Of a stretch of 64,000 bases of DNA, positions 5,602 to 59,684 are shown one piece after another (within the stretch, counting starts at the first letter, position 1; each line of letters begins with the position of its first letter). The notes beneath the pieces are model-generated. The model was given only the letters and a program-made list of their open reading frames with translations. It was not told the origin of the DNA and ran no database searches. Origin of the DNA: Minisyncoccia bacterium (lineage in GTDB: Bacteria; Patescibacteriota; Minisyncoccia; Phycocordibacterales; UBA9973); the NCBI GenBank assembly GCA_049287045.1, contig JBAQFC010000001.1, positions 3,309 through 67,308 on the forward strand, given 5' to 3'. A program made the translations under genes and the position numbers.

Positions 5602-6018
5602 ATGTCATCTACAATAAAAAACATAATAATACTTGTAGTTGTGGCGATAGTCCTTGTTTTAGTTTACATTTTTTTCTTAAAACCTGCCCCAGAACAAGCA
5701 CCTTTAACTACATCATCTGGCGCACCAGTTACTGCCACTGTAACCAGTGACCCTATAACAGGAAGCGAATTCCTTGCAGTTCTTTTGAGTGTAAAAAGCT
5801 TAAGACTTGATGATGCTATTTTTTCTGATCCAGCTTATATTTCTTTGCATGATTCTAGTATTGAACTTATTACTGATACCACAGAGGGGAGACCAAATCC
5901 TTTTGCCCCGATTGGTTCAGATGTTTCTACTGTACCTATTAATACTCTAGCTCCTACTTCTACAACAACCACTATCGTCCCTACAACTACAACCACCACT
6001 ACAAAAATAACACCTTAA
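5602..6018 (+). CDS. small membrane-anchored protein with Thr-rich C-terminal tail (PilP-position protein)
   Basis: N-terminal TM; low-complexity TTTTIVPTTTTTTTK tail; sits between pilO and pilB. Confidence 0.3.
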   Translation: MSSTIKNIIILVVVAIVLVLVYIFFLKPAPEQAPLTTSSGAPVTATVTSDPITGSEFLAVLLSVKSLRLDDAIFSDPAYISLHDSSIELITDTTEGRPNPFAPIGSDVSTVPINTLAPTSTTTTIVPTTTTTTTKITP

Positions 6019-6025
6019 TTATATT

Positions 6026-7777: not shown

Positions 7778-7851
7778 GTTTCTTTAATGCTATATCATAA
7801 AAAGTGTTTTTAGAATATAATTAATATATTATCATTTATTAAATTTTACAC

Positions 7852-44387: not shown

Positions 44388-44415
44388 TGTGAATAAATGT
44401 CGAAGGTCGGACCTT
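44388..44415. repeat. 28-bp direct repeat copy B (TGTGAATAAATGTCGAAGGTCGGACCTT)
   Basis: 27/28 identity with copy A. Confidence 0.8.
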
Positions 44416-45635
44416 CGATAGAAGGCTTATGTTATAATAAAAGTGTGAAAACAAAAATAATTTCAAAAAGTAAATACAAAATTACATACGGAGGATGGTA
44501 TCAGCGAACAACACTCCATCTTAGTGAAATATATATGTTGTTTATGCATGGCACCTCCAATTTGAATTTATCAAAAGAAGAACTCAAAAAGTTTCAAGAA
44601 GGGCTTCAGCTTGCCAGTATTTCCCGCGAATCCGGTTATTTTGAATATATCAAAGCAGTAACAACATCAGGCATAGAAGTCCGATATTATGAAGACGGTC
44701 TTTATACTTTAGATATTTATTCTGATGATATTTCGACTGCACAAGATATGCTTGAAAAATATTTTCAAGAAAAACTTAGTCCGGCGATCTCTTTTATTTT
44801 TTCTCTTGGCGCACCGACTCCAAAAATATTAGCAAATATAAAGACAGACCACCCAGTCGCAGTGAGTATTTTAAACGATAAAAATGATAATTTTATTTTA
44901 GATGAATCTTTGTTCGGTGAAGTTTATACTAAAATTTCAAGTGGAGGTATTACAGTATATAAAACTCCGAAGTATATTTTTATTTCTGCCCCAAGAGAAG
45001 CAGGGAAATACATGAATGATGTTATTGAGATGCAAATTTTCTTCCGAGAATTCAAGGACCAGCTTGAAAAATATTTGCATATTCACAGGACTATTTGGGA
45101 AGAGATTTCTAATATCAAGGAAGCAAAGATAATTAAAGGCAAGGATGTTGAAGAAATAAGAGGTAGACTCGATGGTTATCAAAAAACAATCAGTCTCATC
45201 AGTAATCGAATTAATCAGATGAATTCTTATATCAATACTCGTTCTTCTATTGCAAAAAATCTTGAAATTGAAAAGGAACTGGTGGCTCTTTTTGAATATA
45301 AATTTGAAACACTAACTGATACATTGTCTTATATCAAAGAAATATGGAAAATGACCGGTGATTATCTCGCGTCAGCTATCGGTAATCTTGTGGAAATAAA
45401 AAATCAAAGTACGAGTAATAATTTAAAATCTCTTCAGACTATTACAAGTATTGGAGTGATTTCGGGAGTAATAGGCTATTTATCGGCAAGCAAACTACCA
45501 AGCATTAGTAAAGAAGGGGCCGTATATTTTATTATTCTTTTTTGTTTGACTTGGCTTATGAATTTTATAATCTCAAAGAGATATAAGAATAAGAAATATA
45601 GTTTAAAATTTGGTGACCGCGCATCCAACATATAA
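44397..45635 (+). CDS. hypothetical protein with C-terminal TM helix; true start uncertain (the track start lies inside repeat B; Met residues at about residue 47 and about 50 are alternatives)
   Basis: ORF; predicted coiled-coil middle; C-terminal hydrophobic segment. Confidence 0.35.
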   Translation: MSKVGPSIEGLCYNKSVKTKIISKSKYKITYGGWYQRTTLHLSEIYMLFMHGTSNLNLSKEELKKFQEGLQLASISRESGYFEYIKAVTTSGIEVRYYEDGLYTLDIYSDDISTAQDMLEKYFQEKLSPAISFIFSLGAPTPKILANIKTDHPVAVSILNDKNDNFILDESLFGEVYTKISSGGITVYKTPKYIFISAPREAGKYMNDVIEMQIFFREFKDQLEKYLHIHRTIWEEISNIKEAKIIKGKDVEEIRGRLDGYQKTISLISNRINQMNSYINTRSSIAKNLEIEKELVALFEYKFETLTDTLSYIKEIWKMTGDYLASAIGNLVEIKNQSTSNNLKSLQTITSIGVISGVIGYLSASKLPSISKEGAVYFIILFCLTWLMNFIISKRYKNKKYSLKFGDRASNI

Positions 45636-45651
45636 TATAAATTTAATTTTT

Positions 45652-46851
45652 ATGGAAACTCCAACAAAAAAGAATTTTTTAAATGTTCATCCGGATGTAT
45701 TGAAACTAGGCATTGTTAGTTTTTTTACTGATGTTAGTTCGGAAGCTATTTTTTCTGTCTTTTCAATATTTTTCACAATAGTTTTGGGTGCCTCTTCTGC
45801 GTTGCTCGGCTTAGTAGAAGGCTTCTCAGATTTTTTTGCGTCGTCATTAGATTATTTTTCTGGTTGGCTATCAGATAGATCAGGAAAAAGAAAACCTTTA
45901 ACTATTTTTGGTTATGGCTTTTCAACTTTAGCAAAAATATTATTACTCTTTGTTACTTCTGTTTCCGCTTTGGCTTCATTCAGAATTATTGAACGTCTGG
46001 GAAAAAGTTTTCGTGGTCCACCCAGAGATGCTTGGCTTTCTTCTGTCGCAGATGAGTCCAATAGAGGTTATGCTTTTGGTATACATAAAGCCTTAGATAA
46101 AGCTGGAGCTGTTTTAGGACCAATCCTTGCATATGTTTTATTGAGCTGGCTTGGTACAAATGTACACACTTTCCGTATCATTTTCATTGGGGCAGCAGTT
46201 TCAGCGGTCATAGCGGTTATTATTCTTTCCTTTATGAAGGATCGTCCAGGTGCTCCACATGAAAGAGAAAATATTTTTAAGGCTTGGGGAACATTGAGTC
46301 CTGAATTTAAGCTCTATCTTATTCCAGCTGGTATTTTTTCTTTAGCGTATTTTAGTTTTGGTTTTATTCTCCTTCGTGCTTATACTTTGGGTTTTGAGAT
46401 AAAGGATGTTGTTTTACTTTATGCTCTTTTTAATATTACTTTTGTTATAGTTTCAGCACCGATTGGTAAACTTGGAGATATTATAGGAAGAAAATATATA
46501 ATTATTTTAGGTTACATAATATATGCGTTAATGTCTCTAGGCTTTGTTTTTGCTACCCATAAATGGGAGGTGATTGTCTTATTTATAATGTTTGGTGTTT
46601 TTTATAGTATTGATGAAGCTCAAAACAAAGCGTTTGTTACTGATTTGGAAAAAGACCGACGAGCGACTGCTATTGGTATGCTTAATTTTGTAAATGGTTT
46701 AATTTATCTTCCAGCATCATTGATAGCTGGAGCATTATGGTTACTTCACCCTACATACGCTTTTGGTCTTGCAGTTTTTATAACATTGGTTGCGTTAGGT
46801 GTTTTCATTTTTATATTGCCTAGGATTATTAAAAAAAATGAAAATATTTAA
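45652..46851 (+). CDS. MFS transporter
   Basis: 12 TM pattern with RxGRR-like loop (SDRSGKRKP). Confidence 0.7.
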   Translation: METPTKKNFLNVHPDVLKLGIVSFFTDVSSEAIFSVFSIFFTIVLGASSALLGLVEGFSDFFASSLDYFSGWLSDRSGKRKPLTIFGYGFSTLAKILLLFVTSVSALASFRIIERLGKSFRGPPRDAWLSSVADESNRGYAFGIHKALDKAGAVLGPILAYVLLSWLGTNVHTFRIIFIGAAVSAVIAVIILSFMKDRPGAPHERENIFKAWGTLSPEFKLYLIPAGIFSLAYFSFGFILLRAYTLGFEIKDVVLLYALFNITFVIVSAPIGKLGDIIGRKYIIILGYIIYALMSLGFVFATHKWEVIVLFIMFGVFYSIDEAQNKAFVTDLEKDRRATAIGMLNFVNGLIYLPASLIAGALWLLHPTYAFGLAVFITLVALGVFIFILPRIIKKNENI

Positions 46852-47311
46852 TAGAATAAAAGAACAGCACCTTTTGGCTAGGAGACATTTAGATAAAAAA
46901 CTAATTTTCAGGTTAGTTATCTTTATCTGTATTTTTTTGATAATGATTGTTCTTATTTCTTACAATATTTTTGAAAATGAAATTGGTTTCTTTTTGGCTA
47001 TAATAGGATTTATTTTGGGTGTTGGTATCGGTCTTGCTTCAGGCAGAGTGTTCTCTGTTCGGTGGCACCAAGAAGATTTAAAAGTAGTTTCTCGTATGGA
47101 TAAAATAGGAATAATGTTTTTAATACCGTATCTCATTTTTACTTTCTACCGAGAAAGAATTCTAACTTTTTGGTTTCATGGCCCATTACTTTCCGCTTTT
47201 ACTTTTAGTCTTATTGCTGGAATAATGTTGGGGAGAATTATGTATCTTTTTTTTCATATAAAAAAGACTTTAGCAGTAGAGGGAATTTCTTTTTCTGAAA
47301 AAAATTTGTAG
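46838..47311 (+). CDS. hypothetical polytopic membrane protein
   Basis: four hydrophobic segments. Confidence 0.35.
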   Translation: MKIFNRIKEQHLLARRHLDKKLIFRLVIFICIFLIMIVLISYNIFENEIGFFLAIIGFILGVGIGLASGRVFSVRWHQEDLKVVSRMDKIGIMFLIPYLIFTFYRERILTFWFHGPLLSAFTFSLIAGIMLGRIMYLFFHIKKTLAVEGISFSEKNL

Positions 47312-47323
47312 TATACTAAATAA

Positions 47324-47944
47324 GTGAAGAAATTTCTGTTATCATTTTTTGTTATAGGTAGTTTTGCACTATACGTCGCCTATTATGGTAGTAGTGGTTC
47401 TTTGAGTTATATTTCTAGCCCTGTTACTGAAGTAAAAAATAACACTATAACTGATACTCAAAACACAACTGCTAGTCAACCCACTCAGATTTTCAAGGTT
47501 CCCAGAAATATTTTTGGTGAAGATGATGATAACGAAGAAGATGATGATGATGGTCGTTCTGTACCAGGAACTACTCCAACTCCAATCTTGAGTTCTGTTC
47601 CTGTGACCACAACAAAGCCAACGATCAATATGGGTTCTCAAATGATGCCTGTACATATGGGTTTATATAAAGATGGAACATACGTAGGAAGTAACGAATA
47701 TGCATACAGTGATTATATAAAAGTAACCGCTGTAATTTCTGGTGGTAAGATTACTGATATACAATTTCCTACCAATTCTATTGGTCCAAACCGAACACAA
47801 CAAATTTACAGTTATTCAATGCCTATCTTAAAATCAGAAGCAATCTCTGCCCAATCCGCAAGTATCAATGGAGTTTCTGGTGCAACCTATACTAGTGCTG
47901 CGTTCAAACAATCATTAGCCTACGCATTAACACAAGCAAAATAA
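47324..47944 (+). CDS. membrane-anchored FMN-binding-domain protein (putative flavinylation substrate, SGATYTS motif)
   Basis: N-terminal TM; acidic linker EDDDNEEDDDDG; C-terminal FMN_bind-like region ...INGVSGATYTSAAFKQSL; GTG start. Confidence 0.7.
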   Translation: MKKFLLSFFVIGSFALYVAYYGSSGSLSYISSPVTEVKNNTITDTQNTTASQPTQIFKVPRNIFGEDDDNEEDDDDGRSVPGTTPTPILSSVPVTTTKPTINMGSQMMPVHMGLYKDGTYVGSNEYAYSDYIKVTAVISGGKITDIQFPTNSIGPNRTQQIYSYSMPILKSEAISAQSASINGVSGATYTSAAFKQSLAYALTQAK

Positions 47945-47948
47945 TAAT

Positions 47949-48719
47949 ATGAAAGAAACAAGAATTATTATGGGCATGCCTGTAATAATAGAAATCCCTG
48001 ATGATTCTGTAGTTAAAGAAATATTTAATCTTATTTTTGATTATTTTTCTTATATTGATGAAAAATTTTCTCTTTATAAAGAAACAAGTGAAATAACAAA
48101 AATAAATAAAGGAGAAATTAAAGAAGATGAGTACAGTGAAGATATGAAGGAGGTTTTAAAGTTGTCTGAAGAAACAAAAAAAGAAACAGGTGGTTTTTTT
48201 GATATTATGAATAATGGATTATGTGATCCGTCTGGAATAGTAAAGGGTTGGGCTATTCATAATGCATCAGAAATTCTTCGCAGAAACAAAATTAAAAATT
48301 TTTATGTTGAAGCTGGAGGTGATATTGAGGTAGAAGGTAAAAATAATGATGGTAAACTTTGGGCTATAGGCATCGCTAATCCTTTTGATTTAAAACAAGT
48401 AGTAAAAGTTGTATACTTAGAAAATAAGGGGATTGCAACAAGTGGTACATATATACGCGGACAGCATATATATAACCCGAAAAAGTTTGCGGAAGTCGTT
48501 GCGGAAGTCGGACTTCCGCAGGACATAGTGAGTTTGACTGTTATTGGTCCGAATGCTTATGAAGCTGATCGTTTTGCTACAGCTGCCTTTGCGATGGGGA
48601 GAGAAGGAATTATTTTTATTGAGAATCTTCCCGGTTTTGAAGGATATATGATTGACAAAGACGGAATAGCGATAATGACAAACGGTTTTGAAAAATATTT
48701 GATACAAAAAAATGCTTAA
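47949..48719 (+). CDS. apbE: FAD:protein FMN transferase ApbE (no signal peptide)
   Basis: MGMPVIIEI, SEITKIN, GGFFDIMNNG, KGWAIHNASEIL, GGDIEVEG, WAIGIANP, ATSGTYIRGQHIYNP, EADRFATAAF motifs. Confidence 0.85.
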   Translation: MKETRIIMGMPVIIEIPDDSVVKEIFNLIFDYFSYIDEKFSLYKETSEITKINKGEIKEDEYSEDMKEVLKLSEETKKETGGFFDIMNNGLCDPSGIVKGWAIHNASEILRRNKIKNFYVEAGGDIEVEGKNNDGKLWAIGIANPFDLKQVVKVVYLENKGIATSGTYIRGQHIYNPKKFAEVVAEVGLPQDIVSLTVIGPNAYEADRFATAAFAMGREGIIFIENLPGFEGYMIDKDGIAIMTNGFEKYLIQKNA

Positions 48720-50244
48720 ATTTATAGATAATCTTTTAAATAGAATAACAATGTATCGTTTAGTTCTTTATTCGTTACTTTTTATATTTGCGGGAGCATT
48801 GGTGTTTTCTATCTTTGGAGTTTTACCTTTTAGTCCGGTCATGTTTCTGTTCGGTTCTCTTTTTATAATTTTTATTTGTTTAATTACAAATATTATATTT
48901 GCTTCAGTTTTTGATGTTCCGACAAATGTTGAGTCTGTATATATTACTGCTCTGATTTTAATCTTAGTTATTACTCCACCTCAAAATTTTCTTGATATAA
49001 CTTATTGGGGTTTTTTGTTTTGGGCTTCTGTTTGGAGTATGGCTTCTAAATATATTTTTGCAATTGGTAAAAAACATATTTTTAATCCCGTCGCTTTTGC
49101 CATTGTTTTGACTACGATCACCATTGGTCAATCAGCAAGCTGGTGGGTTGGTACATTAGTAATGACTCCTTTTGTTATTACCGGAGGTCTTCTTATTGCT
49201 AGAAAAGTAAGAAGGTTTGATATGGTATTTAGTTTTTTTGTTGTTGCATTGGCTATTACCATAGGAGTCCAAGCATTTGATTTTAATAGTGGATTAAATA
49301 TTGCATACAGGTTTATTTTAAACTCACCATTCTTATTCTTTGGTTTTATTATGCTGACCGAACCTCTGACTACTCCACCGACAAGATTTTTAAGGATGTG
49401 TTACGGTGCAATCTGTGGATTTTTGTTTCCTCCATTTATGCATATTGGAACGATATTTTCTACACCAGAAATATCACTCCTAATTGGAAATATATTTTCT
49501 TATGTCGTTAGTCCAAAGCAAAAACTTATTTTGGTTTTAAAGGAAAAAATAAAAATAGCACAGAATACTTATGAATTTGTTTTCTCTACTGATTATCCTT
49601 TTTATTTTAAACCCGGACAATATTTAGAATGGACTTTGGGTCATAAGTGGCCAGACTCAAGAGGGAATCGTAGATATTTTACTATTGCTTCTTCTCCTAC
49701 TGAAAAAGAGATAAGACTGGGAGTAAAATTTTATCCAGAAGGTAGTAGTTTTAAGAACAAACTTCTTAATATGAAAGAAGGCAAGGATACAATTATTGCT
49801 GCTCAATTAGCAGGAGAATTTATCTTGCCAAAAGATCCAAGTAAAAAACTTGTATTTATGGCAGGAGGAATTGGTGTTACACCGTTTCGAAGTATGATTA
49901 AGTATCTTATAGATATGAAACAGGAGAGAGATATTGTTATGTTCTATTCAAATAGAACTTCATCTGATATTGCTTATAAAGATATTCTTGATCAGGCGTT
50001 TGCAGAAATCGGAGTAAAAACTATTTATGCTATAACTGACCCAGTACTACCGGGTGAAGTTTGGAATGGCAAGGTTGGTTTCGTTGATGCAAAGATGGTA
50101 ATGCAAGAAGTTCCTGATTATTTAGATAGATATTTTTACCTTTCTGGTACGCATGGTATGGTAGAATCTTTTGAAAAGATGCTTTTGGGTATGGGTGTAA
50201 AATCAAGCCATATAAATAAAGATTTCTTTCCAGGATTCGCTTAA
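48712..50244 (+). CDS. polytopic membrane domain (RnfD/NqrB-like HxFNP motif) fused to a C-terminal FAD-binding / NAD(P)H-binding oxidoreductase module (ferric-reductase/NOX-type GIGVTPF)
   Basis: about 8 TM N-domain with KHIFNPVAFA; C-terminal RRYFTIASSP (FAD) and GGIGVTPFRSM (NAD) motifs. Confidence 0.6.
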   Translation: MLKFIDNLLNRITMYRLVLYSLLFIFAGALVFSIFGVLPFSPVMFLFGSLFIIFICLITNIIFASVFDVPTNVESVYITALILILVITPPQNFLDITYWGFLFWASVWSMASKYIFAIGKKHIFNPVAFAIVLTTITIGQSASWWVGTLVMTPFVITGGLLIARKVRRFDMVFSFFVVALAITIGVQAFDFNSGLNIAYRFILNSPFLFFGFIMLTEPLTTPPTRFLRMCYGAICGFLFPPFMHIGTIFSTPEISLLIGNIFSYVVSPKQKLILVLKEKIKIAQNTYEFVFSTDYPFYFKPGQYLEWTLGHKWPDSRGNRRYFTIASSPTEKEIRLGVKFYPEGSSFKNKLLNMKEGKDTIIAAQLAGEFILPKDPSKKLVFMAGGIGVTPFRSMIKYLIDMKQERDIVMFYSNRTSSDIAYKDILDQAFAEIGVKTIYAITDPVLPGEVWNGKVGFVDAKMVMQEVPDYLDRYFYLSGTHGMVESFEKMLLGMGVKSSHINKDFFPGFA

Positions 50245-50252
50245 GATATAAA

Positions 50253-50804
50253 ATGGAAAATAAAGATACAGAATTAATAGATTCATACCTCTCTGGTGAT
50301 GACAATGCTCTAAAAGAACTTATCGGTAAATATACTCCCCAAATTTATAACTTTGTCAGGCGTTTTGTTGGAGTAAATGAAGCTGATGATATTACTCAAG
50401 AAGTTTTTATAAAAGTTTGGAAAAACTTAAAAAAATTTAATGTGGATAAATCAAGTTTCAAAACTTGGATATTTACTATAGCTAGAAATACAGTCATTGA
50501 TTTCATGCGCAAAAGGAAAATTGTTTTATTTTCAAGTTTAGACAATGAAGAAAATTTTTCAGAATCTATAGAGGATGAAGCAATCTTACCAGACGAAGTA
50601 ATACAAAAATTACAAGATGTGGATTTATTGAATTCATTATTAGAAAAATTACCAGAACAATATAGAACAGTTTTAGTTTTACATTATCAAGAAGATATGA
50701 CTTTTGATGAAATATCACAAGTCCTCAATAAACCATCAAATACAGTAAAAAGCCACCATCTTCGGGCAATTTCACAATTAAGAAGGATGATTGCACCCAA
50801 ATAG
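50253..50804 (+). CDS. ECF-family RNA polymerase sigma factor
   Basis: sigma70 region 2 (YNFVRRFVG...DDITQEVFIKVW) and region 4 (MTFDEISQVLNKPSNTVKS). Confidence 0.8.
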   Translation: MENKDTELIDSYLSGDDNALKELIGKYTPQIYNFVRRFVGVNEADDITQEVFIKVWKNLKKFNVDKSSFKTWIFTIARNTVIDFMRKRKIVLFSSLDNEENFSESIEDEAILPDEVIQKLQDVDLLNSLLEKLPEQYRTVLVLHYQEDMTFDEISQVLNKPSNTVKSHHLRAISQLRRMIAPK

Positions 50805-50827
50805 ACTTAGCTTACGTATATAAAGGT

Positions 50828-51229
50828 ATGGATAGTAATATTACAAAAGCCTTTAAAAGAGCCTCATATTTACCTGAAAATAACCTTTCGAAGTCTATTT
50901 TTCTTACTCTTTCTCTTAGGGAAAAAAGGAACAATCAAATAAAACTTTGGATTTATTCAATAACTGGAATTTTTTCTATTTCTGGTTTTTCCTTAATGAT
51001 TAAACAGTTAGTCTCTGATTTTTCTAACTCTGGTTTTTATGATTATTTAGCTTTGTTATTTTCAAATAGCAAAGCCTTGTTTTATTGGAAAGAAATCGTT
51101 TTATCTTTAACTGAATCTTTGCCAGTAACTAATATAGCTATAACTCTAGTTTTGGTTTTTATTTTTATATTGTCCTTACGTTTTATGTCACACAATATTC
51201 GTATACGTAATAAATTATTAATAGCATAG
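50828..51229 (+). CDS. putative anti-sigma factor / small two-TM membrane protein
   Basis: position immediately after the ECF sigma; two hydrophobic helices. Confidence 0.35.
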   Translation: MDSNITKAFKRASYLPENNLSKSIFLTLSLREKRNNQIKLWIYSITGIFSISGFSLMIKQLVSDFSNSGFYDYLALLFSNSKALFYWKEIVLSLTESLPVTNIAITLVLVFIFILSLRFMSHNIRIRNKLLIA

Positions 51230-51239
51230 TTTTATTTTT

Positions 51240-51764
51240 ATGAAAGAAATTAAAGAAAAAATTAAAAAAGTTTTTGAGTCAAAAATGGTCCTTAAGATTT
51301 TATTAATTTTAGGTATTTTAGTTGTTGCTGCATTTATTTTTCAGGCAGGTTTTTTTGTTGGTTTTCGCAAAGCTTCATTTGGTCGTGATTGGGGTGAAAA
51401 TTACGGACGTAATTTTGGGATGATGAATGGACGTGGTGGTTTTGGTGGAATGATGGGGAATTTCCCTAATGCTCATGGTGCTATTGGTAAAATTATAAAA
51501 ATTGAATTACCAATTCTTATTGTCCAAGATAAAGATAATATTGAAAAGATTGTAATTGTAACTAATGATACAAAAATTATAAATATAAGAAATGAAGACA
51601 ATATACAAGATCTAAAAATAGATGAAAATATTGTTGTTATCGGGACTCCAAATTCACAAGGACAGATTGAGGCTAAATTAATAAGAATTATGCCTTTTCC
51701 AGCAATAGTTCCTCTTAACAATATAAATATACCAATCCAAGTTAACAGTCAAATTAAACAATAA
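51240..51764 (+). CDS. Gly-rich secreted/membrane-anchored protein (paralog of 55582-56034)
   Basis: N-terminal TM; GRGGFGGMMG stretch; C-terminal beta-rich domain shared with the 55582 protein. Confidence 0.35.
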   Translation: MKEIKEKIKKVFESKMVLKILLILGILVVAAFIFQAGFFVGFRKASFGRDWGENYGRNFGMMNGRGGFGGMMGNFPNAHGAIGKIIKIELPILIVQDKDNIEKIVIVTNDTKIINIRNEDNIQDLKIDENIVVIGTPNSQGQIEAKLIRIMPFPAIVPLNNINIPIQVNSQIKQ

Positions 51765-51766
51765 TT

Positions 51767-53464
51767 ATGGAAACAACAAAACCAAGTACATTCGTTAAAA
51801 AAAATAAGAATTATATTATGAATCATAAAATAATGAGCTTCATTGTTATTTTGGTAGTTGTTTGGATTGGATATTGGGGATATGGGAAATATAATAGTAC
51901 TACAGGTGACAATCGCTATGTTTCTTCTGCTGTTACTAAGGGAACTATTATTACTTCTATTACCGGAAGTGGACAAATTTCCGCTTCAAACCAAATTGAT
52001 TTGAAACCAAGAGCATCCGGTAATACGAATGTTTCTGGAAATATTACAAACATTGCTGTGAGTATTAATGATAAGGTTAAACAAGGTCAGCTTCTTTTTT
52101 CTTTAGACGATCGGGATGCTCAAAAGGCAGTTCGAAATGCTGAAACTAGTTTAGAAACTGCTAAACTTGAATTAGAAAAATTTCAACAGGCTCCTAATAC
52201 AGTAGATGTGTTAACAATCAAGAAAGCTATAACTGATGCAGAAAATTTAAAGCTTGACGCAGAAAAAGCAGTTAAAGATAAATACAGAGATTTGCTTAAT
52301 ACTTCTATCGTTGCATTATCAATGAATCCATCTGACACTCAAGCTTCACCTATAATTAGTGGAACATACATCAAAGGTCAGGAAGTAACTATTTTTATTA
52401 ATATTTATCAAACAGGGAATGGGGCATATTATAATGCAAATAGTACACCAAGTGGAATCGTAAATGGATCAGGCGATGCGACTTCTTTGTTCCCTCAACC
52501 TATTGGTGATTCAGGACTTTATATTAAATTTGCATCCAATTCTTCTAGCCAACTTGGTTGGACAATTACTCTTCCCAATAAATCTGTAGCTGCTTATAAT
52601 ACAAATTTGATTGCCTATCAAGATGCAGTCGATAATCAAAAAAAGGTAAATGATACTGCAGATCTTACTATCGCCCAAAATAATAAAAAACTTGATGATC
52701 TTTATAATCCAAATGCTCTTGATTTACGTTCTAAGCAGTTGGTTGTTGAACAAGCACAAAATACTCTTGATGACGCCAAACAATCATTGAAGGATTATTC
52801 TGTGACCGCACCATTTTCAGGAGTTATTTCATCTTTACCTGTACAGCAAGGGGAGTTAGTTACTTCTAGTACTGTTTTAGCTACATTGATTACTGAAAAG
52901 AAATTTGCTGAAATTTCTCTTAACGAGGTAGATATGGTTGGAATAAAATTAAGAGAAAAAACTACTCTAACTTTTGATGCAATCCCAGACTTTTCAATTG
53001 TTGGAGAGGTGGCAGAAATCGACACAATTGGTACAGTATCACAAGGAGTAGTTACATATAATGTCAAAATTAGTTTTGATACAAAGGATGCAAGAATTAA
53101 ACCCGGAATGAGTGTTTCAGCTTCTATCGTTACAAATATTAAACAAGATGTTTTAGTTGTACCAAATAGTGCTGTAAAAACTCAAGGAAGTTCAAAATAT
53201 GTTGAAATGTTTGATATACCATTAGTTCCACCAATAGACGGATTACCTGGTTCTATTTCATTAATTCCTCCCAATAAAATTACAGTAGTAGTCGGAGTTT
53301 CAAATGATTCAGAAACTGAAATAATTTCAGGACTAAAAGAAGGAGATGAAGTTGTGACAAGAACCATTTTACCGACAGCTGTAAAAACAACAACTGCCCC
53401 TAGTATATTAAGTGGTGCCGGAAGTGGAAATAGAGGTGGAACTGTAAGAATTCCAGGACAATAA
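51767..53464 (+). CDS. efflux membrane-fusion (HlyD/MacA-like periplasmic adaptor) protein
   Basis: N-terminal TM; biotinyl/lipoyl-like hairpin (VKQGQLLFSLD); coiled coil; beta-barrel domain. Confidence 0.7.
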   Translation: METTKPSTFVKKNKNYIMNHKIMSFIVILVVVWIGYWGYGKYNSTTGDNRYVSSAVTKGTIITSITGSGQISASNQIDLKPRASGNTNVSGNITNIAVSINDKVKQGQLLFSLDDRDAQKAVRNAETSLETAKLELEKFQQAPNTVDVLTIKKAITDAENLKLDAEKAVKDKYRDLLNTSIVALSMNPSDTQASPIISGTYIKGQEVTIFINIYQTGNGAYYNANSTPSGIVNGSGDATSLFPQPIGDSGLYIKFASNSSSQLGWTITLPNKSVAAYNTNLIAYQDAVDNQKKVNDTADLTIAQNNKKLDDLYNPNALDLRSKQLVVEQAQNTLDDAKQSLKDYSVTAPFSGVISSLPVQQGELVTSSTVLATLITEKKFAEISLNEVDMVGIKLREKTTLTFDAIPDFSIVGEVAEIDTIGTVSQGVVTYNVKISFDTKDARIKPGMSVSASIVTNIKQDVLVVPNSAVKTQGSSKYVEMFDIPLVPPIDGLPGSISLIPPNKITVVVGVSNDSETEIISGLKEGDEVVTRTILPTAVKTTTAPSILSGAGSGNRGGTVRIPGQ

Positions 53465-53538
53465 AAATTACTTGTCCCGTTAAAATTCAGGGGATTTAGA
53501 ATTAACAAAATATTTACTAATTAAAAATTTTTAATGGG

Positions 53539-54255
53539 ATGATTGAGATAAAAGATATTACAAAAACATACAAGTCAGGGGATATGGAATTTCAGGCCTT
53601 GAAAGGTGTAAGTTTTACCATTCAGGACGGTGAATTTGTTGCAATTATGGGACCTTCTGGGTCTGGTAAATCAACATTGATGCATATTTTAGGGGCTCTC
53701 GATAATCCAACCAGCGGAAGTTATTTTTTGGATGGTCAGGATGTTTCAACTCTTACTGATGATGAACTCGCAGATATTCGTAAAGATAAAATTGGTTTCG
53801 TTTTTCAATCTTTTAATTTATTGCCTCGTACAACAGTACTTCGAAATGTAATGCTACCTCTTATTTATGAGGGTGTAGAAGTTGAAGAAAGAGAAAAGCG
53901 TGCCAAGGAAGCACTTTTTTCTGCAGGTCTTAATGAGTCACATTTTTACCATTTATCCAATCAACTTTCTGGTGGTCAAATTCAACGTGTTGCTATTGCG
54001 CGAGCTCTGGTAAATAATCCGTCCTTAATTTTAGCAGATGAGCCGACGGGAAATCTTGATTCTAAAACTGGAGAAATAGTTTTAGGAACTTTTCAAAGAT
54101 TAAACAAAGAATACGGTAGAACAATTATATTAATAACTCACGAGCAATATATTGCTGAACATGCTGATAGAATTTTATTTATTCATGATGGTGTGCTCAC
54201 CGAAAATGAGAATGGTCATTCCAAAAGAGTTATAAAAGAAGTTACTACGTTTTAA
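53539..54255 (+). CDS. ABC transporter ATP-binding protein (MacB/LolD type)
   Basis: Walker [10 protein letters not shown], signature [15 protein letters not shown], Walker [12 protein letters not shown]. Confidence 0.9.
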
Positions 54256-54286
54256 TTGTCATTAGAATAATAATTTTTTAAATAAT

Positions 54287-55510
54287 ATGAACTTATCAGA
54301 CATAATACATGAAACATCTAGCGCTTTATTTGCGAACAAAATCCGTACAGGACTTACAATGCTCGGAATTGTAATTGGTATTGCTTCGGTTATTGCAATG
54401 ACTGCAATTGGTCAAGGTGCGCAGAATTCAATATCAGCAAGTATTGAATCAATTGGTGCAAATTTGGTGATGGTTATGCCCGGAGCAGCACGTACTTTTG
54501 GTGGACCAAGTGCTGGACGTGGAGGAGCTCAGTCGTTAACAGTAGGGGATGCTGACGCTATTGTGTCAGGAGTTTCTGGTGTGATGGGTGTAGCTCGTCA
54601 GGTGACTTCTCGTAAACAAGTTGTTGGTGTTGGTTCTAATACTAATACAAATATTATAGGCACAGAGCCGTCATATTCTACGATTAGAAATGTCTCTATT
54701 GATGAAGGTGTATTTTTGTCAGAACAAAATATTTCAAGTGGTTCAAAAGTTGCTGTATTAGGTCCAACCACTCGAGATGACCTTTTTGGTGTAGGAACTA
54801 CAGATGTAGTGGGTAAAAAAATTCGTATTTCTGGTAGTGAATATTTGGTTATTGGTATAACTAAATTAAAAGGAGGCTCCGGTTTTAGTAATAGTGACGA
54901 TGTAATATACATTCCGTATACTACGGCTCAAAGATACCTTACTGGAAATGACTATTTAAGTGAAATAGATGTTTCAGCTACTAGTTCTGGTGTATCAGCT
55001 CAGGTACAATCTGATGTTACTTCTTTATTAATGAACCGTCATAATATTTCTGATCCAACTAAGGCTGATTTTAATACTATGAATCAGGCCGATATTATTG
55101 CGACTGCTTCTTCGGTAACTGGGACATTTACTATGTTTCTTGCTGCAGTTGCCGGTATTTCTCTTTTAGTTGGTGGAATCGGAATTATGAATATGATGTT
55201 AACAACAGTGACGGAACGCACAAGAGAAATTGGTTTACGTAAAGCAATCGGTGCAAAAAGAAAGGACATCAATACTCAGTTTTTATTGGAAGCAGTTATG
55301 CTTACTTTTATAAGTGGAGTGATAGGCGTGATTTTGGGGTGGATAATATCTATGGCTGTAACATACTCCGGAATTGTTCAAACTCAGGTATCCCTTTCGA
55401 CTGTTCTTTTAGCTTTCGGTGTTTCGGCCGCAATTGGAATTGTCTTTGGATATTATCCTGCGCGTCGAGCAGCAAGTTTAAATCCGATTGATGCATTGAG
55501 GTATGAATAA
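54287..55510 (+). CDS. ABC transporter permease (MacB/FtsX-family, 4 TM plus large periplasmic domain)
   Basis: N-terminal TM, MacB_PCD-like domain, C-terminal FtsX 3-TM domain. Confidence 0.85.
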   Translation: MNLSDIIHETSSALFANKIRTGLTMLGIVIGIASVIAMTAIGQGAQNSISASIESIGANLVMVMPGAARTFGGPSAGRGGAQSLTVGDADAIVSGVSGVMGVARQVTSRKQVVGVGSNTNTNIIGTEPSYSTIRNVSIDEGVFLSEQNISSGSKVAVLGPTTRDDLFGVGTTDVVGKKIRISGSEYLVIGITKLKGGSGFSNSDDVIYIPYTTAQRYLTGNDYLSEIDVSATSSGVSAQVQSDVTSLLMNRHNISDPTKADFNTMNQADIIATASSVTGTFTMFLAAVAGISLLVGGIGIMNMMLTTVTERTREIGLRKAIGAKRKDINTQFLLEAVMLTFISGVIGVILGWIISMAVTYSGIVQTQVSLSTVLLAFGVSAAIGIVFGYYPARRAASLNPIDALRYE

Positions 55511-55581
55511 AATTTCCGTCTCGTCGACGGATTCGCCGTGGAGGCTAAATTATAAGATTAGTATTTAAAAATTAAAAAAAT

Positions 55582-56034
55582 ATGAATAAAATAGAAAATA
55601 AAAAAAATGTAATGATCGTAGTAGGAATTATAGTTTTAGTCGGAGTATTTTATGTAGGAATGTCTTACGGTAAAAGTAAAATACCTTCTAGAGGTCAGGG
55701 AGGACAAGGTGCTCAAATTTTTGGCCAGAATGGTAGAAGTGCTGCTGGTGGTGTAAGGGGTGGAGGTTCTTTTGGTAGTATGACTGCTGGTGAAATCCTT
55801 TCCAAGGACGCACAAAGTATGACCGTAAAACTCAGAGATGGTAGCTCTAAGATAGTTTTTTATACAGATAAAATATCTGTTGAAAAAAATGTTAGTGGAA
55901 CTTCTTCTGATTTAGTTGTTGGTAAACAAATAAGTGTAACTGGTACAACAAACTCAGATGGTAGTATAACTGCTCAATCTGTTCAAATCAGACCAGCAAT
56001 GTCTGTTATTACTGCTCCTGCTGTAACACAGTAA
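55582..56034 (+). CDS. Gly-rich secreted/membrane-anchored protein (paralog of 51240-51764)
   Basis: N-terminal TM, GGVRGGGSFGSM stretch, similar C-terminal domain. Confidence 0.35.
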   Translation: MNKIENKKNVMIVVGIIVLVGVFYVGMSYGKSKIPSRGQGGQGAQIFGQNGRSAAGGVRGGGSFGSMTAGEILSKDAQSMTVKLRDGSSKIVFYTDKISVEKNVSGTSSDLVVGKQISVTGTTNSDGSITAQSVQIRPAMSVITAPAVTQ

Positions 56035-56538: not shown

Positions 56539-57987
56539 TTGTTTTTAATTATTAATAAATCGTCATCTTTTAAAAATATGAAAATATTAAACAAGGTTTC
56601 TATTGCGTCCGTCTTGGTTTTTGCTTTCGTTTTAGGTTTTACTGGATCATCTACTGCAAATGCAGCTGGTCCTTCGGTAGTCAATCTTGGATCAGCAGGT
56701 GATTTTGTCCTTCTTGGAAAAACAGGAATCTCAACTACTGGGACAACTGCAATCACAGGAGATATTGGAGTCAGCCCTGCCGCAGCGACTTATATCACTG
56801 GATTTGGATTAATAATGGACACCTCAAATACATTCTCAACATCTTCTCTTGTTACAGGTAAAGTTTATGCAGCTGATTATACTGCTCCAACTCCAACTAA
56901 GATGACTACAGCTATCAGTAATATGGAAACTGCTTACACTGATGCTGCAGGAAGAACAAATCCAACTGCAACTGAATTGGGCTCCGGAAATATTGGTGGA
57001 TTAACAATTGCACCTGGACTCTACAAATGGGGTACTTCTGTGATAGTGCCGACTGATGTTACTTTATCAGGAAGCACAAACGATGTTTGGATTTTCCAGA
57101 TAGCACAAGATCTTTCTTTAAGTTCTGGTGTTCATATCAATTTGGCTGGTGGTGCAAAAGCTGAAAATATTTTCTGGCAGGTGGCTGGTCAAACAACCTT
57201 AGGAACAACTTCTGTTTTTAACGGAAATATTTTAGACCAAACAGCTGTTGTATTTAATACTGGCGCAACATTAAATGGTAGAGCTCTTGCACAAACTGCT
57301 GTTACATTGGATTCAAATTCTGTAATTATTCCCGCAGTTGTTTCTGTAACTCCAACCCCAGAAGTAACACCAACACCTGTAGTTACACCAACTACTACAG
57401 TAAATACGACCGTAACACCTACATCAACAACTATAACTCCAGTCACAACTGTTACAGCTGCCACAGGTTGTCTACAAGGAAATGCTTTTAATACAGCCAC
57501 TGGTGCTTCTTGTACTCCTCCTATTTCTGCAAGTGAAGGTTGTCTGCAAGGTAATATGTTTAACACAGTTACAGGTACTGCTTGTACTTCCGTTGTTGTC
57601 TCTGTTGACACAGGTTGTTTACAAGGAAATAAATTTAGTATAACTACAGGAAATACTTGTACTTCTTTCGTTCCTAATGTTTCTACTAATACTACTACTT
57701 CAACTGTATCAACTACCACTACTCCAGCCAATTTTGGCCAACTAATAAAATCAATTGCTGTTAATCTTAATATGGGTAGCAAAGGAGATTTAGTAAGAAG
57801 TCTTCAAGAGTTTCTAATTTCACAAGACAAAGGTCCTAAAGCAAAAGCTCTAGATGCCCACGGTACAACTTTAAACTTTGGATCTTTAACTAAAGCAGCT
57901 TTGGCTGAGTGGCAAGAAGCTGTTGGTATTTCTCCAGCGCTAGGAAACTTTGGACCAATAACTCGAACTTTTATAAGTGCAAATTAA
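56539..57987 (+). CDS. secreted DUF3494 (ice-binding-like beta-solenoid) protein with three tandem 20-aa Cys repeats (GCLQGNxFNTxTGxxCT) and a C-terminal peptidoglycan-binding (PGBD-like) domain
   Basis: signal peptide; NLGSAGDFVLLGKTGISTTGTTAITGDIGVSPAAATYITGF; three 60-bp DNA repeats at 57467-57650; C-terminal LVRSLQEFL...AALAEWQ. Confidence 0.55.
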   Translation: MFLIINKSSSFKNMKILNKVSIASVLVFAFVLGFTGSSTANAAGPSVVNLGSAGDFVLLGKTGISTTGTTAITGDIGVSPAAATYITGFGLIMDTSNTFSTSSLVTGKVYAADYTAPTPTKMTTAISNMETAYTDAAGRTNPTATELGSGNIGGLTIAPGLYKWGTSVIVPTDVTLSGSTNDVWIFQIAQDLSLSSGVHINLAGGAKAENIFWQVAGQTTLGTTSVFNGNILDQTAVVFNTGATLNGRALAQTAVTLDSNSVIIPAVVSVTPTPEVTPTPVVTPTTTVNTTVTPTSTTITPVTTVTAATGCLQGNAFNTATGASCTPPISASEGCLQGNMFNTVTGTACTSVVVSVDTGCLQGNKFSITTGNTCTSFVPNVSTNTTTSTVSTTTTPANFGQLIKSIAVNLNMGSKGDLVRSLQEFLISQDKGPKAKALDAHGTTLNFGSLTKAALAEWQEAVGISPALGNFGPITRTFISAN

Positions 57988-58013
57988 TTATAATTATTAG
58001 CGTCGCGTTTTGA

Positions 58014-59684
58014 TTGACATTACGCGACATGATTTTGCAAAATCAAAAATATATGAAAAAGTTTAATAAAATTTCAATACTCGTGTTAGTTATTGTGTTT
58101 GCTCTTGGAACGGCTGGACTAATAAAAGCCAGAGCTGCTTCAACAGTAAGTCTCGGCACAGCAGATAACTTTGCAGTTTTAGCTGGATCAGGAATTACAG
58201 ATACAACACCTTCTGTTGTTAGTGGAGATGTTGGTTTGAGTCCAACTACTGGTGCAGCTATTGGTATAACCGTTGGTGAAGTAACAGGTACGGTATATGC
58301 TGTTGATGTGGCTGGGCCAGTTGGTTCAGTAAATAATCCAGGTTTATTAACTTTAGCTAAAGATGCTTTAACAACTGCTTACGGTGTAGCTGCTGGCCAA
58401 GCACAAACATCTGCAATTGTTGCTGATCTTGGTGGACAAACATTAACACCAGGTGTTTATAATTCTGGTTCTTCTATTGGACTTACCGGTACGGTCACTC
58501 TTGATGGTGGTGGTGATGCAAATGCAGTTTTTATTTTTCAAGCTGGTTCCACTCTTACTACCGCATCAGCCAGTCATGTTAATCTAATTAATAGCGCTCA
58601 AGCTTGTAATGTTTTTTGGCAAGTTGGCAGTTCGGCTACTCTTGGAACAACTTCTGATTTCAAAGGAAATATTCTTGCTTTTTCTTCTATTACAGATAAC
58701 GGAGGTTCGACTGTAGACGGAAGACTCTTAGCAAGAAATGCTGCAGTTACATTAAACAATACTCATGTTACTAAATCAACATGTTCAACTCCTGTTCCTA
58801 CACCTACACCAACGCCTACTCCAACTCCAGTAGCACCTTTAATTAGTATTGAGAAAGTTCCATCTTTATTGTCCTTGTCTGTTGGAGGTGGATTAATTTC
58901 ATTTGATTATACAGTTTTAAATGTTGGAACAGTTGCTATGAGCAATGTCACAGTTACTGACAATAAATGTTCTCCAGTAGCTTTTATTTCAGGTGACACC
59001 AACAGTGATTCAAAACTTGATTTAACTGAAACTTGGAAATATAATTGTACCTCAACAGTTACACAAACAACCACAAATACAGCCACTGCGACTGGTCAAG
59101 CAAATGGTTTTACTGCAACTGATACTGCAGATGCAACTGTTGTTGTTGGTGCAGCACTTCCATCACCGTTGATCCATCTTATTAAAAAGCCAAGTGTAGA
59201 TACTCTTCCATCTTCTGGTGGAGCAGTTACCTATACATACACTGTGACCAACCCTGGTACAGTTGCTTTGAGTAATGTAAGTGTTGTTGATGATAAATGT
59301 AGTTCAGTTTCTAGTCACTCGGGTGATACAAATAACAATAATTTGCTTGATATTTCAGAAACATGGACTTATACATGTCAGTCCAATCTTACACAAACAA
59401 CTACAAATAAAGGTACAGCTGAGGGAAGTGGTAATGGTTTGACTGCTATTGATTATTCTCTTGCTACAGTTACTGTAGCTGGTTCAGTCGTAGCTCCTGT
59501 AGTAGTCTCTACTCCTGTTGTAAAAGCTTCTACCACAACAACTTCTGTAGTAACAACTCCTAAGTTGCCAAATACAGGATTTGCTCCCGAAGAAAAAAGT
59601 AATGTCTGGAATATTATTATCCCTGCTGGAATTTTTATTACTCTATTTTCATTCTATTTAGCTAAAAAGAAACAGATAATCTAA
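58014..59684 (+). CDS. LPNTG-anchored surface protein: DUF3494 (ice-binding-like) domain, Pro/Thr linker, two DUF11-like repeat domains
   Basis: signal peptide; SLGTADNFAVLAGSGITDTTPSVVSGDVGLSP; PTPTPTPTPTP linker; two ~100-aa repeats with conserved Cys pairs; C-terminal LPNTG, hydrophobic helix, KKKQ. Confidence 0.65.
   Translation: MTLRDMILQNQKYMKKFNKISILVLVIVFALGTAGLIKARAASTVSLGTADNFAVLAGSGITDTTPSVVSGDVGLSPTTGAAIGITVGEVTGTVYAVDVAGPVGSVNNPGLLTLAKDALTTAYGVAAGQAQTSAIVADLGGQTLTPGVYNSGSSIGLTGTVTLDGGGDANAVFIFQAGSTLTTASASHVNLINSAQACNVFWQVGSSATLGTTSDFKGNILAFSSITDNGGSTVDGRLLARNAAVTLNNTHVTKSTCSTPVPTPTPTPTPTPVAPLISIEKVPSLLSLSVGGGLISFDYTVLNVGTVAMSNVTVTDNKCSPVAFISGDTNSDSKLDLTETWKYNCTSTVTQTTTNTATATGQANGFTATDTADATVVVGAALPSPLIHLIKKPSVDTLPSSGGAVTYTYTVTNPGTVALSNVSVVDDKCSSVSSHSGDTNNNNLLDISETWTYTCQSNLTQTTTNKGTAEGSGNGLTAIDYSLATVTVAGSVVAPVVVSTPVVKASTTTTSVVTTPKLPNTGFAPEEKSNVWNIIIPAGIFITLFSFYLAKKKQII

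Follow-up and report, generated by a model that had tools for sequence, protein, structure and literature searches.

Three adjacent genes in the analyzed stretch of DNA (a 64-kb window, hereafter "the window") probably, at a rough probability of 75%, encode a two-subunit Nqr/Rnf-like flavin complex for transmembrane electron transfer together with a dedicated flavin transferase, by which electrons would be exported. The host genome belongs to the Patescibacteria (Minisyncoccia/Paceibacteria), and the cassette is an ordinary representative of the "NQR/RNF-like" system published earlier (Méheust et al., 2021, eLife 10:e66878, PMC8238504; Huang et al., 2024, mSystems 9:e00375-24, PMC11334425), known chiefly from Actinobacteria and CPR. 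As a further example of a class described bioinformatically in 2021 and modeled in 2024, the locus contributes little of its own. A literature search for experiments on the system in CPR returned nothing beyond the same two papers.

Gene Arrangement

All features lie on the forward (+) strand and positions are those of the window. Gene 1 (47324..47944; 206 aa, GTG start) encodes a membrane-anchored FMN_bind protein that is a putative NqrC/RnfG-like flavinylated subunit, gene 2 (47949..48719; 256 aa) encodes a compact ApbE (FAD:protein FMN transferase), and gene 3 (48712..50244; 510 aa) encodes a membrane domain of the RnfD/NqrB fold joined to an NqrF-like FAD/NAD(P)H domain. The tight packing reported in a preliminary description of this DNA was re-found from the open reading frame positions, with 4 nt (TAA-taat-ATG) between genes 1 and 2 and an overlap of 8 nt between genes 2 and 3, a spacing that suggests co-translation. 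The motifs SGATYTS, KHIFNP, RRYFTIASSP, and GGIGVTPF listed in that description were likewise all located in the cassette proteins. The gene directly after the cassette (50253..50804), there called an ECF sigma factor, proved to be one by its matches to Sigma70_r2, Sigma70_r4_2, and TIGR02937 (E = 9.5e-39). It is a possible regulator of the cassette, outside the core system, and an orthologous ECF sigma factor was present within 8 kb of the cassette, upstream or downstream, in 14 of 76 related loci.

The Anchored FMN_bind Protein

The profile search matched residues 128–202 of gene 1 to FMN_bind PF04205 (E = 3.9e-8), while blastp against E. coli RsxG gave no significant match. The protein is "NqrC/RnfG-like" in a limited sense only, since the small FMN_bind core is all that both have in common. 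A signal-anchor helix (47333..47389; residues about 4–22) follows the initial MKK. The relatives of gene 1 likewise carry a hydrophobic N-terminal segment after MKK or MKR, whose Kyte-Doolittle mean over 17 residues exceeded the threshold of 1.8 in 65 of 76 open reading frames, with on average 1.95 K+R residues ahead of the helix and 1.05 behind it. The helix is followed by a low-complexity stalk rich in Thr, Pro, Ser, and Asp (47390..47656), and the corresponding linker of the homologs comprises 19–123 aa (P 18%, T 16%, S 12%, A 11%). Judged by its composition, the stalk would be a typical extracytoplasmic tether.

The predicted attachment site for an FMN phosphoester is Thr188 (codon 47885..47887) in VSGATYTS, and the segment NGVSGAT(188)YTS fits the Dxx(s/t)gA(T/S)-type motif of ApbE substrates, encoded nearby. 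The proposal that this is a flavinylation-type motif would have been undermined by a poorly conserved Thr. Instead, [ST]GA[TS] was found in all 76 gene-1 relatives, with Thr in 58 and Ser in 18 of them, and in every relative it was located 18–20 residues from the C-terminus.

An ApbE without Signal Peptide

Gene 2 matched ApbE PF02424 (E = 6.2e-39) in the profile search and the solved ApbEs 4xgw, 2o18, and 7esa in the PDB (E = 1e-17 to 1e-16), so that together with the PF04205 match of gene 1 both the FMN_bind and the ApbE identities previously assigned were borne out by profiles. Its transferase activity on gene 1 is predicted. The CPR and Chloroflexota ApbEs are about 70–90 aa shorter than the solved ApbEs (325–340 aa), and the best 120 database homologs of gene 2 were all 237–269 aa long.

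No lipoprotein or secretion signal was found at the N-terminus of gene 2, where merely seven residues precede the MGM block, and an ApbE signal peptide was found in none of the loci. A mis-called start, or a read-through or fusion with gene 1, was ruled out: the frames differ, an in-frame stop (TAA) lies seven codons upstream of the ATG, and about 58 loci and 120 proteins called independently have the same N-terminus. The locus copies share the conserved start MKxT(R/K)xIMGMP. The missing signal is a trait conserved across the clade. The lipoprotein or secretion signal is typical of characterized ApbEs yet does not define the family. Neither Méheust et al. (2021) nor Huang et al. (2024), in the passages searched, take up the missing ApbE signal peptide.

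The mismatch between an ApbE without export signal and an outward-facing substrate, pointed out in the preliminary description, is a real puzzle, and the two fit together badly unless flavinylation comes before export. Given the missing export signal, it is simplest to assume that gene 1 receives its flavin in the cytoplasm, where FAD is available, before its C-terminal domain is translocated.

The Membrane-Reductase Fusion

The N-terminal membrane domain of gene 3 (48712..49509; residues 1–266) gave no match when residues 1–273 were scanned against Pfam, even at E ≤ 10, and a single-sequence phmmer search of the PDB with this domain returned nothing. Its RnfD/NqrB nature is therefore shown by profile and fold. 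Most homologs at 55–81% identity to gene 3 carry a precomputed PF03116 match, for which this particular copy is too diverged. The family profile matched RnfD (8ahx_D, E = 0.0017), and hhalign aligned the domain with E. coli RsxD (E = 4e-6). As the FNR matches masked the membrane domain in a Foldseek search with the full-length model, the domain was modeled alone, and its 15 best Foldseek matches in the PDB were then all RnfD/NqrB chains (TM-score 0.58–0.71). The RnfD/NqrB likeness previously read from a short motif is thus confirmed, but the AlphaFold2 model (mean pLDDT 85 for gene 3) contains about 10 helices and not the about 8 first counted. The K+R content is 1.5–3.9 per predicted cytoplasmic loop or FNR linker and 0–0.3 in the predicted outer loops, and the membrane domain accordingly has its N- and C-termini inside.

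The alignment to RsxD is collinear apart from a loop of roughly 70 aa around T187 of RsxD, which is deleted in gene 3. The flavinylated GISQAT(187)PL loop has no counterpart, GQSASWWVG being found there instead, which agrees with a feature described by Huang et al. (2024). SASWW was rejected as a cryptic flavinylation site: the third position of GQSASWWVG varies among homologs (S, G, or T), so that some of them have Gly in place of the Ser, and the segment aligns to AGWQW of RsxD and not to T187. Two other motifs are retained. KHIFNP (49072..49089), in a cytoplasmic-side loop, corresponds to GQNPFNP of RsxD (aligned to its FNP at 121), and H122, F124, N125, and P126 are invariant in 28 homologs. 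MLTEPLTTPP (49351..49380) aligns to RnfD and corresponds to ILTDPVTAST of RsxD, with M214, T216, E217, P218, T220, and P222 invariant among homologs. The suggestion that His pairs might bind heme had to be dropped, as the fold is that of the flavin-binding RnfD/NqrB proteins and the conserved H122 and H244 are located at opposite faces of the membrane.

The C-terminal cytoplasmic FNR-type FAD/NAD(P)H domain (49525..50244), which has a C-terminal DFFPGFA and contains RRYFTIASSP (49669–49698) and GGIGVTPF (49864–49887), matched NAD_binding_1 PF00175 (E = 1.5e-13, residues 382–488) and came close to FAD_binding_6 PF00970 (E = 4e-4; 21.0 bits at a cut-off of 21.1). NqrF proteins were its best sequence matches in the PDB (E = 1.7e-16), and in the fold search it resembled FNR-family reductases at 2.5–5 Å rmsd. 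An FAD/NAD(P)H fold, as first proposed, is hence present, predicted with confidence and closest in sequence to NqrF. Its earlier labeling as NOX/ferric-reductase-type needs correction to FNR/NqrF type, with NAD_binding_6 at 17.5 bits (cut-off 22.2) and no match to FAD_binding_8 or Ferric_reduct in the profile search; membership in the NOX/ferric-reductase (FRD) family is further excluded by the RnfD/NqrB fold of the membrane domain.

Relation to Described Systems

No essential difference separates the cassette from the NQR/RNF-like system of the two papers. The parts are identical (an anchored FMN_bind protein, a clustered ApbE, and a fusion of an NqrB/RnfD-like domain with PF00175), both membrane domains are without the flavinylation Thr of NqrB/RnfD, and the taxa match, namely CPR and the Chloroflexota genus modeled in the paper (Ktedonobacter). 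Méheust et al. (2021) defined the system by a C-terminal NqrF-type PF00175 domain, found here in gene 3, by an N-terminal PF03116 domain, recognized here through homologs, the family profile, hhalign, and Foldseek and not by a direct match, and by a distance of at most five genes between the fusion and ApbE or FMN_bind, both of which are here immediately upstream.

The likeness to Na+-NQR and RNF lies in the RnfD/NqrB fold with its conserved K, FNP, and T(D/E)P motifs, in an FMN_bind subunit that, like NqrC and RnfG, is predicted to be flavinylated by ApbE, and, for Na+-NQR, in a reductase domain closest in sequence to NqrF. Within the window and the flanks searched, a canonical RNF or Na+-NQR complex is nevertheless ruled out. 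When the window and the regions around 80 related loci, up to 8 kb per side where the contig allowed, were queried with the E. coli proteins RsxA, RsxB, RsxC, and RsxE (tblastn and phmmer), no RnfA, RnfB, RnfC, or RnfE homolog was detected, and RsxD was the sole Rsx subunit that picked up gene 3. NqrD/E, RnfA/E, RnfB, RnfC, and NqrA are thus absent from the window and these flanks, the reductase lacks a 2Fe-2S domain and is fused directly to the D/B-type subunit, and the covalent-FMN loop of RnfD/NqrB is deleted. With these partners missing, the genes encode just half of the semicircular electron path of NQR/RNF, and the cassette is not known to have a site for quinone or ferredoxin.

In Listeria, the electron route runs through a quinone (DMK) pool and EetA/B, proteins unrelated to those of the cassette. 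The flavin-based extracellular electron transfer of this organism (Ndh2, EetA/B, PplA, FmnB; Light et al., 2018) resembles the cassette in its tethered FMN_bind protein flavinylated by ApbE, which is the outermost carrier in a monoderm envelope, and in NADH as the ultimate donor. The Listeria ApbE (FmnB), however, is an exported lipoprotein whose FAD is supplied by an ECF exporter (PMC9973259), whereas the cassette has an ApbE without export signal and a single RnfD-FNR fusion as the route. Klebsiella pneumoniae likewise has a cytoplasmic ApbE without signal peptide, but its substrate is a soluble cytoplasmic fumarate reductase (reviewed in PMC12052999), and the substrate in the cassette has a signal anchor and an extracytoplasmic-type stalk.

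Proposed Electron Path and Alternatives

In the proposed path, the FNR-type domain of gene 3 would take hydride from cytoplasmic NAD(P)H onto a non-covalent FAD. Electrons would then cross the membrane via the fused RnfD/NqrB-fold domain, probably through a non-covalent flavin at a site matching the riboflavin site of NqrB, and the next acceptor would be the FMN esterified by ApbE to Thr188 of gene 1. We infer that the FMN domain of gene 1 sits outside the membrane on its flexible Pro/Thr/Ser stalk, where the covalent FMN would fill, or shuttle to and from, the outward pocket that in RnfD/NqrB holds their own covalent FMN, and would finally pass electrons to an extracytosolic acceptor. The net result would be a unidirectional export of reducing equivalents, serving NAD(P)+ regeneration or extracellular reductase activity. 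The direction proposed in the preliminary description, in which cytosolic NAD(P)H is the donor and a flavinylated protein beyond the membrane the acceptor, is that of the model published for the class (PMC8238504; PMC11334425), and in an AlphaFold-multimer model the flavinylation site of the FMN_bind protein lies beside the flavin pocket on the outer side of the membrane subunit (PMC11334425).

A bolder form of this reading, which we hold to be rather unlikely, is that the clade flavinylates an outward carrier inside and exports the FMN-loaded protein, and that the complex might also serve as a minimal ion pump driven by NAD(P)H or as a device for extracellular electron transfer. Flavinylation inside would be an undescribed biogenesis route in which FAD export is unneeded. 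With the second part, many CPR "fermenters" would regenerate NAD(P)+ and energize their membrane by means overlooked so far, possibly with the device working at the host interface.

We consider it unlikely that the chain is all-cytoplasmic, with gene 1 inserted N-out/C-in, its FMN domain flavinylated in the cytoplasm and relaying electrons from the FNR domain to the RnfD-like domain, which would reduce a membrane or outside acceptor, e.g., a quinone as NqrB does. That ApbE lacks a signal peptide in all loci and in the best 120 database homologs would fit such a chain, and cytoplasmic ApbEs acting on cytoplasmic FMN_bind domains are known, e.g., for the K. pneumoniae fumarate reductase (PMC12052999). 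The charge bias around the gene-1 helix, calculated for 55 proteins, is tied in 19, but among the others 34 are N-in and only 2 the opposite. The P/T/S-rich stalk, of a kind typical of extracytoplasmic tethers, and the periplasmic location of NqrC and RnfG, which have the same anchor, also point outward. The deleted RnfD flavinylation loop belongs to the outer face, where a substitute FMN would be needed. CPR bacteria are generally not known to have quinones. The published AlphaFold-multimer model docks the FMN_bind domain on the outer face (PMC11334425).

Compatible with the electron path preferred here, but in our view quite improbable, is a minimal redox ion pump in which the passage of electrons through the RnfD/NqrB-like domain would be linked to the translocation of Na+ or H+, in line with proposals for NqrB and RnfD within the full complexes. 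Coupling in NQR/RNF involves the iron center of NqrD/E (RnfA/E) and extensive shifts of NqrC/RnfG from one path to the other, and the NqrD/E (RnfA/E) subunits are absent here. The RnfD/NqrB fold is retained and the membrane acidic residues E217 (corresponding to RsxD D289 in the TDP motif) and E253 (to RsxD D321) are invariant, as are E74 and D170 within the gene 3 family, but these residues may be just structural or cofactor-binding. Such a pump would give CPR a membrane potential without a respiratory chain.

The odds are equally long for an assimilatory ferric reductase, by which the exported electrons would reduce Fe(III) outside the cell ahead of its uptake. Such a role, already suggested for some flavinylation clusters, is favored by the 6 of 127 NQR/RNF-like clusters that include a VIT1 ferrous transporter (Méheust et al., PMC8238504), but no iron transporter was found in the window flanks or among the recurrent neighbors of 76 loci.

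Distribution and Genomic Context

The RnfD/NqrB-FNR fusion was found in at least 590 species-level genomes, of which the best 80 were mostly CPR plus Chloroflexota. The cassette had been called unexpected in a reduced, fermentative genome, a view that does not stand given how common it is in CPR. In 70 of 76 loci a gene-1 homolog was located upstream of the fusion and next to it, and in about 57 of the 76 the genes for FMN_bind, ApbE, and the fusion were collinear, across many CPR classes and the Chloroflexota, including the cultured Dictyobacter aurantiacus. No terminal reductase or acceptor gene was conserved beside the cassette among the 76 loci, where the recurrent neighbors were the ECF sigma factor, MacAB-type ABC efflux systems, two-component systems, and an MFS transporter.

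The published count is 127 clusters, obtained after a signal-peptide filter, and in CPR the original survey found extracytosolic flavinylation to be "strikingly underrepresented" (Méheust et al., PMC8238504). An uncleaved anchor of the gene 1 type may escape signal-peptide calling, which would lower such a count, and the filter may be behind part of the underrepresentation. With the at least 590 genomes found here, the class is far commoner in CPR than the published number suggests, and it is one of very few membrane redox devices in Patescibacteria/CPR, groups without respiratory chains. Cultured hosts exist for the class (Dictyobacter and Ktedonobacter), and it consists of just three genes.

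Cassette layout and relatives

Three genes on the forward strand were found where the preliminary description had recognized a flavinylation cassette, and the FMN_bind and ApbE assignments made there for the first two were borne out by profile search: gene 1 (47324-47944; 206 aa, GTG start) matched FMN_bind (E = 3.9e-8), gene 2 (47949-48719; 256 aa) matched ApbE (E = 6.2e-39), and gene 3 (48712-50244; 510 aa) matched NAD_binding_1 (E = 1.5e-13) and FAD_binding_6 (E = 4e-4). The TAA stop codon of gene 1 is followed by 'taat' and then by the ATG of gene 2, and genes 2 and 3 overlap by 8 nt. The gene 3 protein is identical to a database entry, 'MAG: oxidoreductase [Minisyncoccia bacterium]', which places the window in a Patescibacteria (CPR) genome; the G+C content of the window is about 29-39%.

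The cassette is an ordinary instance of a known system that was defined bioinformatically. According to the available passages of Méheust et al. (2021; PMC8238504), an 'NQR/RNF-like' system is a fusion of PF03116 and PF00175 inside a flavinylation cluster, and this operational definition describes the present cassette. Relatives were identified from pattern matches in one genome per GTDB species, and at least 590 of the at least 600 matches had a gene 3 relative. The best 80 of these at least 590 loci came from many classes of the CPR (Patescibacteria) and from the Chloroflexota, including the cultured Dictyobacter aurantiacus. The cassette had initially been called unexpected in such a genome, a view that we do not retain given its spread over many CPR classes; it is unsurprising there and rather characteristic. 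With at least 590 species-level genomes recovered here, the system is much commoner in CPR than one would gather from the published census, which in the available passages is described as requiring a predicted signal peptide (PMC8238504).

Synteny was counted over the 76 loci with a complete gene 3 homolog. A gene 1 homolog lay just upstream of gene 3 in 70 loci and an ApbE gene lay between the two in 59, therefore about 57 of the 76 are arranged exactly as FMN_bind, ApbE, fusion gene. No ApbE was present in the fetched flank of 14/76 loci, and in three others (L052, L055, and L076) the opposite strand encodes a signal-less ApbE 3-8 kb upstream. About a dozen loci lack an ApbE between the two structural genes, and gene 1 directly abuts gene 3 in loci L013, L021, L028, L040, L045, L067, L071, L075, and L079. 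The cassette is no canonical RNF or NQR complex, since it has none of the A/E, B, and C subunits; homologs of RnfA, RnfB, RnfC, or RnfE were found neither in the window nor at any of the 80 loci.

Domains of gene 3

The membrane half of gene 3 alone gave zero matches in Pfam or PDB sequence searches. Its proposed RnfD/NqrB-like nature was established by profile, hhalign, and fold searches: PF03116 (NQR2_RnfD_RnfE) is matched by most gene 3 homologs at 55-81% identity, a membrane-domain profile built from 16 sequences matched RnfD of A. vinelandii (E = 0.0017), and hhalign against E. coli RsxD (RnfD) gave E = 4e-6. A separate AlphaFold2 model was made for the membrane domain (residues 1-277; pLDDT 77), and its 15 best PDB fold matches were RnfD/NqrB chains only (TM-score 0.58-0.71), followed by urea transporters at E > 0.5. 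In a MAFFT alignment the domain was collinear with RsxD over its entire length, with K113 corresponding to K110 of RsxD, KHIFNP to GQNPFNP, LTEPLT to LTDPVT, and PE253 to PD321. The RsxD loop of about 70 residues with the flavinylated Thr187 (GISQATPL) is missing from gene 3 in this alignment. The positive-inside pattern, determined as K+R counts per loop in 28 homologs, was clean and placed the N-terminus, loops 4-5, 6-7, and 8-9, and the linker to the reductase inside and the site of the deleted flavinylation loop outside. The membrane subunit of the system described by Huang et al. (2024; PMC11334425) likewise lacks the NqrB/RnfD flavinylation site, as stated in the available passages of that paper.

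The C-terminal half of gene 3 is an FNR-superfamily module. The closest solved relatives by sequence were the FAD/NADH domains of NqrF (E = 1.7e-16). The AlphaFold2 model of the whole protein was confident (mean pLDDT 85, pTM 0.75), and the modelled reductase superposed on flavohemoglobin, NqrF, and Fre-type reductases. The preliminary description had assigned it to the NOX/ferric-reductase type, which was ruled out, with NAD_binding_6 under its cut-off and FAD_binding_8 unmatched.

Flavin carrier and putative electron path

Gene 1 consists of an MKK-hydrophobic anchor, a stalk rich in Thr, Pro, Ser, and Asp, and a small FMN_bind domain with VSGAT(188)YTS at its end. The flavinylation-type motif noted at first sight proved to be conserved, with [ST]GA[TS] kept in all 76 gene 1 relatives, Thr in 58 and Ser in 18 of them occupying the modified position, and the predicted modified residue lying a constant 18-20 residues from the C-terminus. 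A hydrophobic N-terminal segment was present in all 76 relatives (65 passed a Kyte-Doolittle mean of 1.8), and the stalk was 19-123 aa long and 57% Pro + Thr + Ser + Ala. The charge bias at the anchor was N-in in 34 relatives, tied in 19, and opposite in 2. In some related loci two FMN_bind paralogs lie beside the fusion gene (L024, 3041-4576; L037, 6180-7995; L074, 6955-7955), one of each pair being short (134-147 aa) and nearly stalkless, which suggests two flavinylated carriers of different reach.

The identities of the domains, the topology of gene 3, the conservation of the motifs, and the loss of the loop come from the analysis itself; which way electrons flow, which cofactor sits in the membrane, and what accepts the electrons we infer. 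In the best-supported electron path, NAD(P)H would reduce FAD in the FNR domain of gene 3, and the RnfD-like domain, like NqrB with its riboflavin, would hold a non-covalent flavin that next takes up the electrons. They would continue to the FMN presumed to be covalently bound to Thr188 of gene 1 and docked in the outer pocket, and finally to an extracytosolic acceptor. In the available passages of Huang et al. (PMC11334425), the complex of Ktedonobacter racemifer is modelled with AlphaFold-multimer, and the FMN_bind site comes to lie beside the outer flavin pocket. Compared with RNF, the predicted path corresponds to half of the RnfC, RnfD, RnfG route in the NADH-oxidizing direction, the reductase and the D-type subunit being one fused protein.

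ApbE and the putative site of flavinylation

Gene 2 is by sequence a bona fide ApbE, but a compact one (256 aa vs. 325-340 aa for solved ApbEs). The conserved MGM block begins only 7 residues after the gene start, and an in-frame stop codon lies 7 codons upstream of the ATG. In essentially every related locus the ApbE frame starts with M(K/R)xT(R/K)x(I/L)MGMP; where longest-ORF calling gave longer frames, the extension was hydrophilic read-through of the upstream gene, and no ApbE of the related loci had a segment upstream of the MGM block as hydrophobic as the anchor of gene 1. The 120 best database homologs of gene 2, called by independent pipelines, were all 237-269 aa long. The ApbE of this clade is so, as far as sequence can tell, cytoplasmic. 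The names 'thiamine biosynthesis lipoprotein' and 'ApbE family lipoprotein' sit on these 237-269-aa proteins (47949-48719 in the window and homologs P0121-P0240), which carry no lipoprotein signal, and are a misleading inherited annotation. At locus L041 of a Chloroflexia MAG (5951-8017) a 444-aa frame runs from an N-terminal anchor like that of gene 1 straight into ApbE, with the C-terminal part of this second gene 1 copy in another frame; a frameshift in the long-read assembly or a pseudogene is the likeliest cause, rather than a genuine membrane-anchored ApbE.

The mismatch between a signal-less ApbE and an outward-looking substrate, pointed out in the preliminary description, is therefore a real puzzle that start position, locus copies, and the 120 homologs show to be conserved clade-wide, and as a clade-wide trait it raises a genuine question of biogenesis. 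It is not addressed in the available passages of the two papers on the system (PMC8238504, PMC11334425). Known cytoplasmic ApbEs act on soluble cytoplasmic substrates (PMC12052999). Four features make gene 1 look outward-facing: how its signal anchor is oriented, what its stalk is composed of, that it is homologous to the periplasmic NqrC and RnfG, and that an FMN is needed at the outer pocket, which RnfD and NqrB fill themselves. An N-out/C-in gene 1, with the whole flavin chain cytoplasmic beside the ApbE, is less likely in the light of these features. We prefer a reading in which gene 1 would receive its flavin on the cytoplasmic side, either before its C-terminal domain is translocated or while this happens; the constant near-C-terminal position of the motif fits this, as does the fact that FAD is available in the cytoplasm. 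A broader scenario, in which the carrier is flavinylated in the cytoplasm and then exported and the system also energizes CPR cells through a minimal role in ion pumping or extracellular electron transfer, seems improbable to us as a whole (roughly one chance in seven).

Genomic context

A partial linkage of the cassette with MacAB-type efflux genes and an ECF sigma factor is a modest addition of this work, as are the abundance of the system in CPR and the clade-wide signal-less ApbE. Recurrent neighbors, all of them non-universal among the 76 loci, were a MacB-type ABC ATPase (18 loci), an ECF sigma factor (14), an HlyD-like adaptor (13), a histidine kinase (10), and a response regulator (8). 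Genes for a reductase, a cytochrome, or an iron transporter did not recur beside the cassette in these loci. In the window, the ECF sigma factor reported directly after the cassette was clear by profile search (50253-50804) and is followed on the forward strand by a 133-aa membrane protein without Pfam match that could be an anti-sigma factor (50828-51229), a 174-aa anchored protein (51240-51764), an HlyD-like adaptor (51767-53464), a MacB-type ABC ATPase (53539-54255) and its permease (54287-55510), and a DUF5666 protein (55582-56034). Parts of this gene set (50253-56034) recur by the cassette in 13-18 of the 76 loci, and in the closest relatives, L001 and L002, the sigma factor lies upstream of gene 1 instead.

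Upstream, a forward-strand gene for a 170-aa multi-pass membrane protein without Pfam match (46799-47311) ends 12 nt before gene 1 and may be co-transcribed with the cassette; it lies outside the conserved system because a homolog was near the cassette in only 1/76 loci. The 412-aa product of 44397-45635, which belongs to no Pfam family and has a membrane segment at its C-terminus, has a 38%-identical homolog at locus L058 only, about 6 kb downstream from the cassette there. Ice-binding-like domains (PF11999) occur in both of two large tandem proteins (56539-59684; E = 1e-77 and 1e-58), and the second has DUF7507 repeats as well; the CPR cell probably secretes the two proteins or displays them on its surface.
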